Counted from the stretch's first letter, positions 32,983-50,324 are shown. The stretch: DNA of 64,000 nucleotides from a virus (IMGVR_UViG_3300023717_000163); one strand, 5' to 3'. Notes: generated by a model from the letters alone, not told the origin. Program-made: numbers and translations.

Positions 32983-34302
32983 ATGGCAACTAAAGGATTA
33001 GGAAATGAAACATTGGTGACCTCCATTCTGCGTTCCAATACAGTATTGGTGGAAGTTGGTGGTAGTGTCAGACGCATTACCGTGGAAAACTTCATGAATG
33101 CTATTAATAATGGTGACGAACAAATGTTGAGGCAGGTGGCTTGGGGGATTCCAATCAAACAATCAACCCAAAGTAGCACGAACTATGGTGTGATAGGTAA
33201 TACAGCCGCATGGACAGAATACAAGTTGTATTGTGGCCGTTATCTCGTAACGAATGATGGAAGGGCTGCTAAAATGTCCCCTACCAATAGTGCGGTGTTT
33301 GCTGATGGTACTGCGGTGGATGAAACCAAAGGGCATGTGATGTGGATAGGGCCACGTTTGTATTATCGTGTACAGACTGACAGTGTAAGTGGTGTACCAG
33401 TCTTATGGCTCTCGATGCTACCTATTGGCGGTGAGTTTATTGGTGGGGCAAATGGTGGAATGTATAACTGTATCGGTGCATACAAAGGCTCCATGTCAGG
33501 TAGCGCACTTGTTTCACGTTCAGGAGTTGCACCGGCAGGCAGCAAGACAATCAACGCATTTTGGAATGCTGCACAAGTGAACGGTAAGGAATGGGGACTG
33601 ACCGATTACGATCAGAGAAAGCTTATTATGATGTTGGGGCTGTCCCAGTACGGAGATACCAATATTCAAGCCAAACTTGGTTATGGTGTGGGTGGTAGCT
33701 CCAGTAAAGACTTGTGGGCTGCTGCGGCAGCATTGCAAACTGGCGCAACAAAGAGTCTCGGTGACAATTGGGGCAAAATAGCTATTTCTGTGGTGAATGG
33801 AAGTAATACTGGAGTGGATTGTTCACGGGTGAACATGATGGGTATAGAAGATCCTTATGGGTGGCAGTGGGAATTTCTGCAAGGAGTATTTTGCGGTAGT
33901 TCCAACAATAGTGCTCAAAGTGGAACGGAAATTTTCATTTACAAAGGAAACCGTTTACCGACTACTGCTGAATTAGCTGCGCATCCAAATGGTGAATACA
34001 GACAAGCTACCCGTCAGACAGCTTCCGGTCAAGTGCAGGAAATAATTCTTGGGGAGCATTTTGATATTTTCCCGAAAAAGATTGGTGGAAACAGCACTTC
34101 TTATTGGGCTGATTATTCATGGGCAAACACTACTGGGCAGCTGGTTCTTTGGGGCGGTAATGCGTATGCCGGTGCGTATTGCGGCCTCGCTTATGCGGGC
34201 TCGGATAGCGCTTGGTCGAGCTCGCGTGCGGACTTCGGCTCTCGCCTTGCGTATTTTGGGAATTTAACATTTGTTAGCGGTGCATCTTTGATGGCTGCAT
34301 AA
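32983..34302 (+). CDS. DGR target protein 1 (tail-fibre/receptor-binding candidate) with the C-terminal variable repeat VR1
   Basis: 439 aa. The C-terminus LVLWGGNAYAGAYCGLAYAGSDSAWSSSRADFGSRLA matches the TR 120 bp downstream except at TR adenines. Confidence 0.7.
   Translation: MATKGLGNETLVTSILRSNTVLVEVGGSVRRITVENFMNAINNGDEQMLRQVAWGIPIKQSTQSSTNYGVIGNTAAWTEYKLYCGRYLVTNDGRAAKMSPTNSAVFADGTAVDETKGHVMWIGPRLYYRVQTDSVSGVPVLWLSMLPIGGEFIGGANGGMYNCIGAYKGSMSGSALVSRSGVAPAGSKTINAFWNAAQVNGKEWGLTDYDQRKLIMMLGLSQYGDTNIQAKLGYGVGGSSSKDLWAAAAALQTGATKSLGDNWGKIAISVVNGSNTGVDCSRVNMMGIEDPYGWQWEFLQGVFCGSSNNSAQSGTEIFIYKGNRLPTTAELAAHPNGEYRQATRQTASGQVQEIILGEHFDIFPKKIGGNSTSYWADYSWANTTGQLVLWGGNAYAGAYCGLAYAGSDSAWSSSRADFGSRLAYFGNLTFVSGASLMAA
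34139..34246 (+). repeat. DGR variable repeat VR1
   Basis: About 108-bp match to the TR. Of the 15 differences, 14 fall at TR adenine positions. Confidence 0.7.
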
Positions 34303-34425
34303 TAGATTTTGAAATATTAGTTCTTTGAATTTCAATTAATTAAAACCCGTCCACCTTCTCGTTTTACGGCAACGGATAACGGGACGAAAGCCGAAAGGCG
34401 TGGACGGTTGGCAGAGGGGAACAAG

Positions 34426-34532
34426 AGCTGGTTCTTTGGGGCGGTAATGCGAATAACGGTGCGAATTGCGGCCTCGCTTATGCGAACTCGAATAACGATT
34501 GGTCGAACTCGAATGCGAATATCGGCTCTCGC
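34426..34532 (+). repeat. DGR template repeat (TR)
   Basis: Non-coding copy rich in AAT/AAC triplets (reads LVLWGGNANNGANCGLAYANSNNDWSNSNANIGSR). Lies between the target gene and the RT. Confidence 0.7.
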
Positions 34533-34818
34533 CATACTTATTTATCGTAGAGTAATCTGCGAGTTCTCCGAGCCATGACCTTGCAGGATTTATATCGTTG
34601 CAACGTAGTAATCAATTGGTTACGATGTCAGAAAATCAAGAATGCGGAAAGGTTGCCCAATTTGCGAAAGGCAACAAGCGGTGTTAGTAGGTTGGTTCTC
34701 GAAAGCTCCGGGCGAATTATTCAAGCAAGTAAAAACAGCTTGCAGTTATCGGAATAATTAAAATAGTCTGAACAAGACAAAATTGGAAGTATGGTGTAAA
34801 TTTTAAAACAAAGCAGCA

Positions 34819-36362
34819 GTGAATATTGGAAGAAGTGATATTGATTGGAAGAGTCTATCGCATAATGAAATTGATAGAATTATAGCGGAAAGGATAGAGG
34901 CTGACAATAAACGGATAGAAGCAAACGGTGGAAAGAAATCTAAAAGAGCCGGGTATATTCTTGAACGTATAGCAGAGATAAATAATTTACGTGAAGCGGA
35001 CAAAGAAGCACAAGATGGGAAGGTTAAGAAAAACCGCTTTATCAGGCGGCATAATCTACACCCGGAAGAAGACCTCCGAGCTTTGCAGTTGATGATCCTG
35101 ACATTGGATTTTCCGGCACCGGATTATAGCGTAATGAGAGTAAAAAGTGATGCAGGAAAGGTTCGAGATATTGTCAAACAGAAATATTTCCCGTGGCGTA
35201 TATTGCACCATGCAATTATGAGGGTGATTGAAGAAGATGTTTATAGAAATTTGATTTATGATACAAGTGCGTGTATCAAGGGAAAGGGATTACATTTTGG
35301 AGTAAGGAGAATGAAACGTTTTCTTCACCGGTACCCGGAATACAAATGGTTCGTAAAGACTGATTTCAAAAAGTTCTATCAAAGTATTCTTCATGAGCTT
35401 ATTGTTGCTGCATTGAGAAGGAAATTCAAAGATGAACGATTTATTAAATTGATCGAGATAGCTGTTTTATCGTATGACAGCGGAACAGAGTTAGTTGACG
35501 TATTGGAGAATGAAGTTGAACGGAAGAAGAGGTGTTCCGATTGGAGCATTTACAAGCCAACCTATCGGGAATTTTGCGGCAAGCCGGATAGATCATACAA
35601 TGAAGGAGAAATATCGTGTCAAATGCCTGCATAGATATTGCGATGATAATGTTATGCTGGCTCGTTCTAAGGCCGAAGCGTTGTTTCTTATTCGTGCGTA
35701 TGAACGGGAAAGTGCAAAAGTTGGGTTGGTAGTTAAAGCAAACAGTTGTATTGCTCCGATAGGAACAGAAACAAAAAATGGGAACAAAAAGCATAGAAAG
35801 CGAAAACGTAGTAAGAGGAAGAAGGATTAACTTTTTGGGCTATTGCTTCACGAAAGATAATGTTCGGATGCGTAAAAATATGAAAAAGAACTTTGCCCGA
35901 AAGGTGAAACGAATAAAAAGCCGGAAACGTAACCGCGAGATACGAGCTTCATACTGGGGCTGGTGTAAGTGGGGAGATTGTAAGAATTTATGGAGAACAA
36001 TAACAAATAATGATATGAGTTTTGCAGATAAAGGTATCAAACAGAGTGGTAGAACAAAGGACGGAAAGAAGTTCTTCGATGTAAAAGAGACAAGATTGAT
36101 GGATATTCTCAATGTCCCTATAACAGTGGTGGACTTTGAAACGAATGTGAAGACAAAGCAAGGTGAAGGTAGATATTGTGTTCTTTTTGAACAGAACGGA
36201 CAACGTAGCAAATTCATAACGAACTGTTACAATCTGAAAGATGTGTTGGATCAGGCTCGCGAAGCGGAGAATAACGGTCAGAAGATTTTTCCAGTGGAAA
36301 ATGTGATTGTCAAGCGGCGTTCGTTAGGTGACGGGAAGAGTGCTTATTATTTTGAAGAATAA
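34819..36362 (+). CDS. DGR reverse transcriptase, interrupted by two apparent frameshifts (three ORF-track pieces)
   Basis: GTG start. Motif A VKTDFKKFYQSILHELI is in frame 1. Motifs B and C GVPIGAFTSQ and RYCDDNVMLA are in frame 2 (35495..35830). INFLGYCF is in frame 3 (35778..36362). The shifts fall at purine and A runs near 35515-35535 and 35770-35790. Confidence 0.7.
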
Positions 36363-36383
36363 TTATAAAAATGGAGGTAATTT

Positions 36384-36779
36384 ATGAAAAGTTATGGAAC
36401 TCTTGTAGGAGAACTGCCGACTGGTATTGAATTTGTAGTTGAAGGTGCGTTGCTACGCATTTACTTCGACTTTGAGAGAAGAGAAGCTGTTCAAAAGGCC
36501 GGTTCGGAAGATGTGGTGGTTGAAGACCAGTATGTCTGTGAAAACGTGGATGTTGAAGGGGAACATGATTATGACAGTATTGTAAGTGCCATTATCATGG
36601 AACGTTATGATGCGAATAAACGTGATGCCATTTTCGCCAACTTGGAAATGGCACGTGATATGGCTTCGGAACTTGACGAAGGTAAGCGTGCCGAATATCT
36701 GAAAGAATACACTGATTATCAGAGTTATCGTATCAAGGCTAAGGAGATCGCAAAAGAAGTATTAGCAAAATTGAAGTAA
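36384..36779 (+). CDS. Hypothetical acidic protein
   Basis: 131-aa ORF after the RT. Confidence 0.45.
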   Translation: MKSYGTLVGELPTGIEFVVEGALLRIYFDFERREAVQKAGSEDVVVEDQYVCENVDVEGEHDYDSIVSAIIMERYDANKRDAIFANLEMARDMASELDEGKRAEYLKEYTDYQSYRIKAKEIAKEVLAKLK

Positions 36780-49739: not shown

Positions 49740-50324
49740 TTACTTTTTTCCAATCAGAAAGTCTTTCCACAATTCTTTGAATTGTTCTCCAAAGTAAATT
49801 GCGATTTCACTTGATTTTACAGCAAGGCGAGAGCCGATATACGCAGACGAGGACGACCAAGCGGAAGCCGAGTTCGCAGAAGCGAGGCCGCAAAACGCAC
49901 CGAAATTCGCAGAACCGCCCCAAAGAACCAGCCGATTACGATCCTCTTCGTCCATTTCATCAATTTCTTTTTGATTATAAAGATAAAACCACGGCGTATA
50001 ACGGTATTCATCTTTAGTAAATCGTGGAAAATCAGGATCGTTGTTTAACGCACGGGCAATAGTGTATAGTTTGATGTAGGCGAGGTGTGCAATATCAGCC
50101 ACTTCTTCTTTGTGTCCGTCTTCATCTTCAACAAGTAGGCGAACAATGGGTTTTACACCTATTGCTTCACAAGCATCTTCGTAGGTTTTAATATTGTGAT
50201 AATCTGTATAATCCGGCTTTTGCTTTCCGAATAGGGCTGTTAGAATACTAATTGCTTTAGGACAGTCGTTTGCTTCACTAAAAGCGGCTGTTACCTTTTC
50301 TTGTGTGATTTTAAGTTCTGACAT
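49740..50324 (-). CDS. DGR target protein 2 (194 aa) carrying the remote variable repeat VR2
   Basis: C-terminal LVLWGGSANFGAFCGLASANSASAWSSSSAYIGSRLA. All 17 nucleotide differences from the TR fall at TR adenines. Confidence 0.6.
   Translation of the reverse strand: MSELKITQEKVTAAFSEANDCPKAISILTALFGKQKPDYTDYHNIKTYEDACEAIGVKPIVRLLVEDEDGHKEEVADIAHLAYIKLYTIARALNNDPDFPRFTKDEYRYTPWFYLYNQKEIDEMDEEDRNRLVLWGGSANFGAFCGLASANSASAWSSSSAYIGSRLAVKSSEIAIYFGEQFKELWKDFLIGKK
49826..49933 (-). repeat. DGR variable repeat VR2 (about 15 kb from the TR, on the opposite strand)
   Basis: Reverse complement aligned to the TR by hand across its full ~108-bp length. The 17 mismatches are all A-to-N. Confidence 0.65.

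Follow-up and report, generated by a model that had tools for sequence, protein, structure and literature searches.

The window analysed here is a 64,000-nucleotide (nt) stretch of viral DNA (IMGVR_UViG_3300023717_000163, one strand, numbered from its first letter), and between positions 32983 and 36362 it carries what is very probably a real and active diversity-generating retroelement (DGR), that of the phage named LoVEphage, apparently also described as Quimbyvirus. A template repeat (TR) lies downstream of a tail-module gene whose 3' end is a variable repeat (VR1), a second variable repeat (VR2) lies in a remote gene on the other strand, and the reverse transcriptase (RT) is encoded in three different reading frames separated by two +1 breaks. 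Comparison with relatives argues that this broken RT gene is functional. How the enzyme is made is less clear: that it consists of three separately initiated polypeptides which assemble has, in our estimation, close to an even chance. The coordinates of all features are given in Table 1.

Table 1. Features of the LoVEphage DGR and its surroundings (window coordinates; ORF, open reading frame; aa, amino acids)
Feature	Position	Strand	Remarks
VP1, target gene 1	32983-34302	+	439 aa, tail-module protein, VR1 at C-terminus
VR1, variable repeat	34139-34246	+	homology to TR extends to 34256
IMH-like 3' end of VR1	34235-34251	+	invariant GC-rich TCGGCTCTCGCC, then VR-specific TTGCG
Hairpin just 5' of TR	34347-34407	+	stem 34347-34354 with 34400-34407
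TR, non-coding template repeat	34426-34533	+	homology to VR1 extends to 34543
Structured spacer RNA 3' of TR	34544-34720	+	conserved blocks, two covarying helices
RT ORF1	34819-35634	+	frame 1, GTG start; N-terminal extension, fingers, motif 3 with catalytic Asp (TDFKKFYQSI)
RT break 1	35510-35533	+	frame 1 to 2, +1; frame-2 ATG 35510-35512, Arg-Gly codons AGA GGT 35528-35533
RT ORF2	35510-35830	+	frame 2, open from 35495; motif 4 GVPIGAFTSQ, motif 5 YCDD
RT break 2	35778-35819	+	frame 2 to 0, +1; frame-0 ATG 35778-35780 behind an A-rich leader
RT ORF3	35778-36362	+	frame 0; INFLGYCF primer grip, thumb, C-terminal beta-rich domain
Acidic 131-aa gene	36384-36779		directly after RT; phrog_11557, an unannotated PHROG
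VP2, target gene 2	49740-50324	-	194 aa; phrog_11581, E 2e-48
VR2, remote second variable repeat	49826-49932	-	same codon register as VR1

The original prediction, made from the sequence alone, described a non-coding repeat that matches the C-terminal coding region of a 439-aa protein except at template adenines. A repeat search recovered this pair as 34139-34256 versus 34426-34543 (118 nt, 85% identity, offset 287), and the 439-aa ORF is present with VR1 at its 3' end. In the ungapped comparison of the VR1 core with the TR, 14 of the 15 mismatches fell at TR adenines (Fisher p = 4e-10), the sole exception being 34233/34520, where the TR base is T; in the extended 118-nt alignment 16 of the 18 mismatches were at TR adenines. 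Mismatches were thus far from independent of the template adenines, contrary to the outcome that had been named as speaking against a DGR. The predicted location of the TR was correct, although its range (34426-34532, 107 nt) was one base short of the 108-nt VR range. As also described, the TR is rich in AAT and AAC triplets: read in the VP1 frame it contains 10 AAY codons (6 AAT, 4 AAC), together with TAT, GAT and ATC. The core of VR2 gave the same result, with all 17 of its mismatches to the TR at adenines (Fisher p = 1.5e-14).

The phage was assigned by comparison with GenBank. Over the region the window is 99.0-99.5% identical to six phage genomes, of which four bear the name LoVEphage (MW660583, OY731444, OY725593 and OY731433) and two are antibiotic-induced prophages, of Phocaeicola vulgatus (PQ571302) and of Bacteroides intestinalis (PQ571265). 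On this identity the window is taken to be a LoVEphage genome, that is, of a Bacteroides phage of the human gut. Few temperate phages of the human gut are as prevalent as LoVEphage, which was detected in about 8% of 1,241 viromes.

Polymorphism in VR1 and the TR was measured in the window and these six genomes, aligned over 9.4 kb. VR1 contained 26 variable columns in 77 nt, and all 24 internal positions opposite a TR adenine were polymorphic, compared with 2 of 83 sites opposite another base (p = 6e-22). The TR had no variable site, and the RT region downstream of 34918 only two single-nucleotide polymorphisms. Similarly, VR2 was present as 18 distinct sequences in 21 genomes, where 23 of 23 TR-adenine sites varied compared with 2 of 84 non-adenine sites. 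In related genomes, therefore, every TR adenine was polymorphic in both VRs while the TR never varied. Two rare non-canonical changes were observed in VR1: a 3-nt, one-codon deletion in OY731444 (L003), equivalent to window 34167-34169, and a T-to-C change at the non-adenine position 34233, unique to the window.

The 3' ends of the repeats carry a fixed difference. After the GC-rich TCGGCTCTCGCC, both VRs have TTGC and the TR has ATAC in all genomes; the TR bases 34534-34538 are ATACT, opposite TTGCG in VR1. By analogy, this arrangement resembles the initiation of mutagenic homing elements IMH and IMH* of phage BPP-1, and it probably sets the direction of transfer. No conserved or significant hairpin, and no strong one, was found 3' of the VRs at the place where BPP-1 has its hairpin.

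The RT assignment was examined on a conceptual join of the three coding segments (513 aa), called here the spliced RT. It matched Pfam RVT_1, and in a sequence search of PDB the best match was the Bordetella DGR RT (8ub7_A, E 2e-14), compared with 1.7e-7 for a group II RT. An AF2 model of the spliced RT (predicted local distance difference test score, pLDDT, of 84) had the same protein as its best fold match (E 1.7e-18, template-modelling score normalised to the target 0.88), and motif 4 is of the DGR type IGxxxSQ (PIGAFTSQ). The NCBIfam model group_II_RT_mat gave 64 bits for a cut-off of 300, and retron and DRT models were far below their cut-offs. By sequence and by predicted fold the RT is thus closer to the DGR enzyme bRT than to group II intron or retron RTs, and an assignment to either of the latter, which had been named as evidence against the DGR, was not borne out. 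At the level of the separate ORFs, ORF1 matched phrog_1423, a reverse transcriptase family (E 4.8e-36), and ORF3 matched phrog_1423 and phrog_19665. The model was confident except for the first residues, two loops and the linker to the C-terminal domain; the two loops contain the frame breaks, which are predicted to lie at the surface. The C-terminal domain, of about 110 aa (roughly 36021-36359), is common to intact homologs and to the RT of Hankyphage. An N-terminal extension of about 40 aa that follows the GTG start (..IDWxSL..EIDRI.., window 34819-34940) occurs in LoVEphage and in some relatives; lineages of 75% and 82% identity do not have it and start near KRxGYxxExIA.

Taken together, the adenine-specific mismatches, the invariant TR, the hypervariable VRs, the bRT-like RT and the DGR-type fold of the target (see below) uphold the DGR reading, in whose identity and activity we have high confidence. 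One point weighs against it: that mutagenesis is going on in this particular genome is deduced from comparison between genomes.

All four RT motifs noted in the original prediction were found, but they are split over three frames, which had not been flagged. ORF1 ends with about 35 codons of out-of-register readthrough beyond break 1, ORF2 ends in a polybasic stretch, KKHRKRKRSKRKKD, followed by a stop codon, and the ORFs overlap in shifted frames by 125 and 53 nt. The AGA GGT of break 1 opens RGVPIG, whose Arg, encoded by AGA, CGC or CGA, is found in every intact homolog; since all intact homologs have Arg-Gly there, the new frame must be read from a point upstream of this residue. At break 2, the Gly codon GGA at 35817-35819 opens GRRINFLGY. 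The six GenBank genomes are annotated with the same three short ORFs, two of them as 'hypothetical'.

A protein search with the spliced RT gave three groups of hits. Some were intact homologs, 477-507 aa long and 39-53% identical; many were proteins of 282-345 aa, at 50-68% identity, whose C-terminus is the shared out-of-register tail after break 1; and others terminated at the shared polybasic ...KRKRSKRKKD after break 2, a motif that is kept in relatives. We then compared relatives at the nucleotide level, using 9 contigs fetched by exact protein match and 78 IMG/VR loci. With tblastn, nearly all relatives in the range of 52-100% identity had their RT segments in frames n, n+1 and n+2; for the set fetched first, the segments were 44-79% identical in their correct frames. 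The exceptions were one intact RT (L015, 53% identity), three loci in which break 1 is fused and break 2 kept (L010 and L011, 74%, also obtained as 75%, and L014, 43%), and one old contig (L016, IMGVR_UViG_2065487001_000014) with A8 in place of the A6 at window 35773-35778, so that ORF2 and ORF3 are fused. Distant Hankyphage-like RTs are single ORFs.

Several of these loci deserve description. In L010, break 1 is repaired, with CGGAAAAGAGG where the shifted sibling L050 has CGGAAAAAGAGG (equivalent to window 35521-35533), and 10 of the 10 mismatches in its VR are at adenines. The L016 fusion lies just upstream of the ATG (L016:1378 region), and its product would carry the ORF3 leader and not the polybasic stretch; the A8 is possibly a natural 'repair' or a homopolymer sequencing error. 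A third break inside the RT was observed in L055 and L057, and a single -1 break near motif 5 in two loci with a Hankyphage-like RT (L091 and L092), all of which could be pseudogenes or errors. Finally, metagenomes contain LoVEphage RT variants with large internal deletions that join the N-terminal part to the C-terminal domain (P0001, P0003 and L021), and these are either defective copies or assembly artefacts.

That the breaks are sequencing or assembly errors in a gene that is really one ORF is hardly conceivable. Both breaks do lie in purine-rich, partly homopolymeric sequence, such as the A6 at 35773-35778, and the old contig with A8 at this place reads in frame. However, identical breaks are present in induced-prophage isolates, in virome assemblies and in dozens of independent metagenome contigs from varied platforms and studies, and they persist in relatives that differ locally at many positions.

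A dead RT gene, with VR diversity that is either old or written in trans by a co-resident Hankyphage or a host DGR, would be compatible with the three frames and the lack of a single long ORF, with the internally deleted variants found in metagenomes, and with the fact that Bacteroides hosts often carry other DGRs. The pattern of substitution opposes it. Among close relatives, each segment read in its own frame gave a ratio of nonsynonymous to synonymous substitution (dN/dS) of 0.11-0.19 for ORF1, 0.03-0.27 for ORF2 and about 0.00-0.06 for ORF3, with zero nonsynonymous changes in some comparisons and 0.02-0.27 as the overall range for segments; compared with L037, for instance, segment 2 had 14 synonymous and 2 non-synonymous changes and segment 3 had 11 and 1. 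The catalytic motifs are intact, and the same two breaks persist at 52-100% identity without further stops. Furthermore, a TR/VR pair of its own, about 106-124 nt long, is present in each relative with both breaks, and almost all mismatches in these pairs are at TR adenines (16/16, 18/18, 17/17, 19/19 and 20/20 among the examples); genomes that otherwise share about 99% identity have different VRs. A pseudogene is therefore very improbable. In conclusion, because its segments are under purifying selection, the breaks are conserved in the clade and the VRs are all adenine-mutagenised, the broken RT gene is, as judged from these comparisons, functional, and the breaks represent neither errors nor pseudogene decay.

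Two ways of making a functional RT from this gene were weighed. The first is independent initiation: ORF1 would be translated from its own start (34819-35634), ORF2 from the ATG at 35510 and ORF3 from the ATG at 35778, and the three polypeptides would assemble. The predicted Met-initiated N-termini would be MKLNGRRGVPIG... and MGTKSIESENVVRGRR.... We analysed 28 distinct sequence contexts of break 1 and 30 of break 2. A +1-frame ATG was found 5-8 codons upstream of the RG in 25 of the 28 break-1 contexts, the other three having TTG or GTG, and 9-20 codons upstream of the Gly in 29 of the 30 break-2 contexts; from the density of +1-frame ATGs (0.038 per codon), about 11/30 and 16/30, respectively, would be expected by chance. 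The old-frame codon that provides the 'AT' of these starts is AAT, GAT, TAT or CAT, never NAC, while elsewhere in the genes NAT accounts for 61-69%; therefore, the constraint is on the +1-frame ATG and not on the old-frame residue. Start contexts were scored with a matrix built from 49 gene starts of the window, crudely chosen. The break ATGs scored +0.3 and +1.0, compared with -3.9 for other out-of-frame ATGs (Mann-Whitney p = 5e-6 and 1.5e-8) and +4.3 for the training starts. In the RT model, the loops that hold the two breaks are at the surface and of low confidence, which also counts in favour of this route.

In the second, the RT would be a single chain produced by two programmed +1 frameshifts, near 35521-35530 (frame 1 to 2) and 35813-35818 (frame 2 to 0), a model that was proposed by Benler et al. 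(2021; PMC8008677) in the part of their article that treats the Quimbyvirus RT. Two inefficient events would keep a mutagenic RT scarce; conversely, in sequence, two low-efficiency events would yield very little enzyme. We consider this route a serious contender, somewhat short of an even chance. Both shifts are in the +1 direction, the segments are co-linear with intact homologs, and working single-chain versions exist within the clade. At the switch, 53 of 58 distinct contexts have AGG or CGG as the old-frame codon; only two sense codons are rarer than AGG in the window ORFs (4.3 per 1000 codons, which is rare but not extreme), and +1 frameshifting at AGG-type sites has a precedent in Perkinsus mitochondria, where AGGY is read as Gly (PMC9550989). 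Break-1 sites with AAA, such as CGT AAA GAG AGG or CGG AAA AAG AGG, would give by a +1 shift the product RKRG that is found in L010. However, the +1-frame Arg-Gly (AGA, CGC or CGA, then GGN), which must be translated, accounts for the AGG or CGG at break 1, and LoVEphage itself has AAG AAG there, not the slippery AAA, which is also absent from L013 and L078. At break 2 there is no common motif: GGT, CGC, CGA, ATG and AAT are among the codons that precede the switch, and the switch itself may be at GGG or TGG. RNAalifold predicted 2 and 0 pairs, with no covariation, in the 100 nt downstream of breaks 1 and 2, respectively, so that neither has a conserved downstream structure, and no fixed upstream element resembling a Shine-Dalgarno (SD) sequence was seen in the alignments of the breaks. 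The phage encodes no unusual tRNA and no tRNA for Gly or Arg, and frameshifting leaves unexplained the conserved +1-frame ATGs with start-like context.

Particular shift mechanisms were also considered and rejected. A hungry AGG or CGG codon as the signal was discarded because at break 1 these codons are the shadow of the Arg-Gly codons and at break 2 the codon can be GGG or TGG. A -2 shift with re-pairing of tRNA-Arg fits AG-AGG and CG-CGG at break 1 and is impossible at many break-2 sites. A shift at the old-frame stop that precedes (D/N)(F/Y)LGY was rejected since this stop is a by-product of the Ile/Leu and Asp/Asn codons and several relatives have CGA or AGA in its place; in L076 an earlier stop closes the old frame directly after AGG, which places the switch at or before that codon. 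A frameshift-suppressor tRNA of the phage was dismissed, as the window has no tRNA gene and the eight tRNAs of LoVEphage are ordinary. Transcriptional slippage or phase variation does not suit break 1 of LoVEphage, which has no homopolymer.

Several points weigh against independent initiation. The ATG statistics take no account of relatedness among the sequences, and local A-richness may explain part of the start-context score. A three-piece RT would split the palm beta-sheet across chains, and we found no report of a naturally split RT in the literature searched. The tail of ORF1 is long, out of register and variable in length (in proteins of 282-345 aa), which counts against ORF1 as a finished subunit because selection would be expected to trim such a tail. 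Within the clade, L010/L011 and L014 are fused at break 1, and L016 possibly at break 2; therefore, a single-chain RT works. Finally, in about two thirds of break-1 sites a Lys codon AAA precedes A or G, and re-pairing of tRNA-Lys in the +1 frame could there give RKRG as in the in-frame L010. With these points included, separate initiation of the three ORFs remains at least as plausible as two programmed frameshifts. The broader proposal, a naturally split RT throughout the clade, in which the first piece would carry the fingers and motif A, the second motifs B and C and the polybasic tail, and the third the primer grip, the thumb and the C-terminal domain, is advanced tentatively, at somewhat less than even odds.

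Either outcome, a pair of non-canonical +1 recoding events or an RT in three pieces, would be unusual for a bacterial retroelement. The clade is tractable for settling RT expression because it offers many natural variants, 'repaired' ones included, and inducible isolates. A practical consequence of the three-ORF layout is that public annotations call ORF2 and ORF3 'hypothetical' and that DGR finders which expect a single RT ORF may miss or mis-score the clade.

The RNA around the TR was analysed by RNAalifold on an alignment of 24 divergent relatives. In the hairpin just 5' of the TR, 6 of the 7 pairs showed compensatory double changes, and a conserved GGTTGGCAGAGGGGAACAAGAG follows it and leads into the TR. 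In the spacer 3' of the TR, 11 of the 15 predicted pairs showed compensatory changes; its helices are 34608-34612/34619-34623 and 34652-34657/34670-34675, the latter closed by 34644-45/34678-79, and an invariant GCGGAAAGG occupies 34644-34652. No Rfam family matched in 34200-36500, including no intron and no msr-msd RNA. This TR-flanking RNA (34340-34720) is probably a DGR scaffold or an RT-binding or priming element of a clade that lacks the accessory protein Avd.

From the DGR paradigm, the following sequence of events can be proposed. A non-coding RNA of about 34340-34720 would carry the TR between its conserved structured flanks. The RT would copy the TR into complementary DNA (cDNA), misincorporating opposite template adenines, and the cDNA would replace VR1, located in the lectin-fold tip at the C-terminus of VP1, as well as the remote VR2 of VP2, with directionality probably set by the 3' GC-rich element and the TTGC of the VRs versus the ATAC of the TR. 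Without Avd, the C-terminal domain of the RT and the polybasic stretch may handle nucleic acid. If the RT is indeed split, it would represent an Avd-independent way to build a DGR ribonucleoprotein around conserved TR-flanking RNA.

Avd is present in BPP-1-type DGRs and is not universal. No gene was called between target and RT in any relative examined. The 60-aa ORF predicted after the TR is present at 34575-34757, and neither it nor a 56-aa ORF had a significant match in Pfam, NCBIfam or PDB, or to Avd. The acidic 131-aa protein encoded directly after the RT likewise showed no significant Pfam, NCBIfam, PDB or Avd similarity, its sole match being phrog_11557. These three candidates were accordingly dismissed as Avd, in agreement with the absence of an Avd-like gene between target and TR noted in the original prediction. 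Nothing Avd-like is annotated in MW660583; the profile searches covered the candidates named here and not the rest of the genome. An acidic protein of about 125-135 aa follows the RT directly in every relative examined; the 131-aa protein may be an accessory factor of the DGR or just the product of the next tail gene.

The two targets differ in their surroundings. VP1 matched the profile phrog_5302, 'tail protein' (E 4.5e-42). A sequence-profile search of VP1 against PDB gave no match, and fold comparison alone succeeded: with an AF2 model of pLDDT 92.5, the best PDB matches were TaqVP (5vf4, E 4e-10), Mtd (1yu0-4) and TvpA (2y3c), which are the three solved lectin-fold DGR variable proteins. 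According to this model, VP1 has the lectin-type fold of DGR variable proteins. Its 90%-identity clusters in public data (P0121 and P0122) contain 42,382 and 8,819 distinct sequences, from which the scale of DGR-driven diversity can be read with unusual directness. Rewriting of this tail-tip lectin probably determines the range of Bacteroides and Phocaeicola strains open to infection by the phage. The C-terminus of VP2 also matched the VP1 family profile phrog_5302, and in the annotation of MW660583 the neighbourhood of VP2 is non-structural. Besides the tail protein, the DGR rewrites this second, non-structural one.

The eight-tRNA cluster of LoVEphage lies at MW660583 positions 17-858, in the part of that 71.5-kb genome outside the window. 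ARAGORN confirmed all eight as ordinary tRNAs (Tyr, Ser, Glu, Gln, Trp, Asn, Phe and Met).

The element and its three-frame RT layout are already known from the literature, and as a DGR it is ordinary. The LoVEphage paper merely notes, for this locus, a tail-collar fibre gene upstream of the RT. Benler et al. (2021, Microbiome 9:78; PMC8008677) describe, in their account of Quimbyvirus ('Quimbyviridae'), the DGR of a Bacteroides phage of about 71-75 kb with an RT "in all three frames", about 22 variable adenine sites and two VRs, the first within a tail-module gene, the second within a distal gene on the opposite strand near methyltransferases and an RtcB/tRNA ligase, a gene that corresponds to VP2. 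According to the same account, Quimbyvirus aligns to the Bacteroides dorei CL03T12C01 prophage CP011531.1, which the LoVEphage paper also cites. The DGR architecture, the two VRs and the three-frame RT all match LoVEphage. Because both phages are tied to CP011531.1 and share this architecture, the LoVEphage DGR is apparently the Quimbyvirus DGR; our literature search found no paper that links the two names. The passages of Benler et al. on the RT, which propose two programmed frameshifts, do not state the direction or sites of frameshifting or the conservation across the clade, and do not consider independent initiation (PMC8008677). The new details are that both breaks are +1, that they are conserved throughout the clade, with purifying selection on the RT segments and active VRs, that canonical frameshift signals are absent, that the starts are conserved, and that the TR flanks are structured.

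Compared with the DGR of BPP-1 (Mtd, TR, Avd, bRT), that of LoVEphage shares the order target gene, TR and RT, a VR at the C-terminus of a lectin-fold receptor-binding protein, an AAY-rich TR, adenine-specific mutagenesis and a GC-rich 3' element that differs between VR and TR; bRT is also the closest solved relative of its RT. It differs in that no Avd gene was found, the RT lies in three frames, a second, remote VR is present on the other strand, and no conserved hairpin lies just 3' of the VRs; relative to bRT, the LoVEphage RT has the N-terminal extension of about 40 aa, the polybasic insert and the C-terminal domain of about 110 aa. Hankyphage (Bacteroides phage p00) is likewise a gut prophage whose DGR targets a tail protein with a lectin domain, and across 94% of the spliced LoVEphage RT, C-terminal domain included, the identity to its RT is 34%. 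However, the Hankyphage RT is one ORF, with a small Avd-like ORF reported next to it, unlike in LoVEphage, and Hankyphage belongs to a different family, being a Mu-like transposable phage.

As for expression of the RT, known +1 recoding sites include CUU UGA C of prfB, CUU AGG C of Ty1 and GCG AGU U of Ty3. The LoVEphage breaks resemble such sites in their +1 direction and, as in Perkinsus AGGY (PMC9550989), in an old-frame codon that is usually AGG or CGG and a first new-frame codon GGN for Gly. Unlike them, they lack a constant P-site codon, a stop at the site and any element upstream (SD-like) or downstream. A naturally split phage polymerase is known as well, the two-gene gp43 DNA polymerase of some T4-like phages. 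There too, a polymerase is encoded by adjacent genes whose products would assemble into one enzyme; the RT of LoVEphage, if made from separate chains, would differ in having three pieces, encoded in overlapping shifted frames, and in being a reverse transcriptase.

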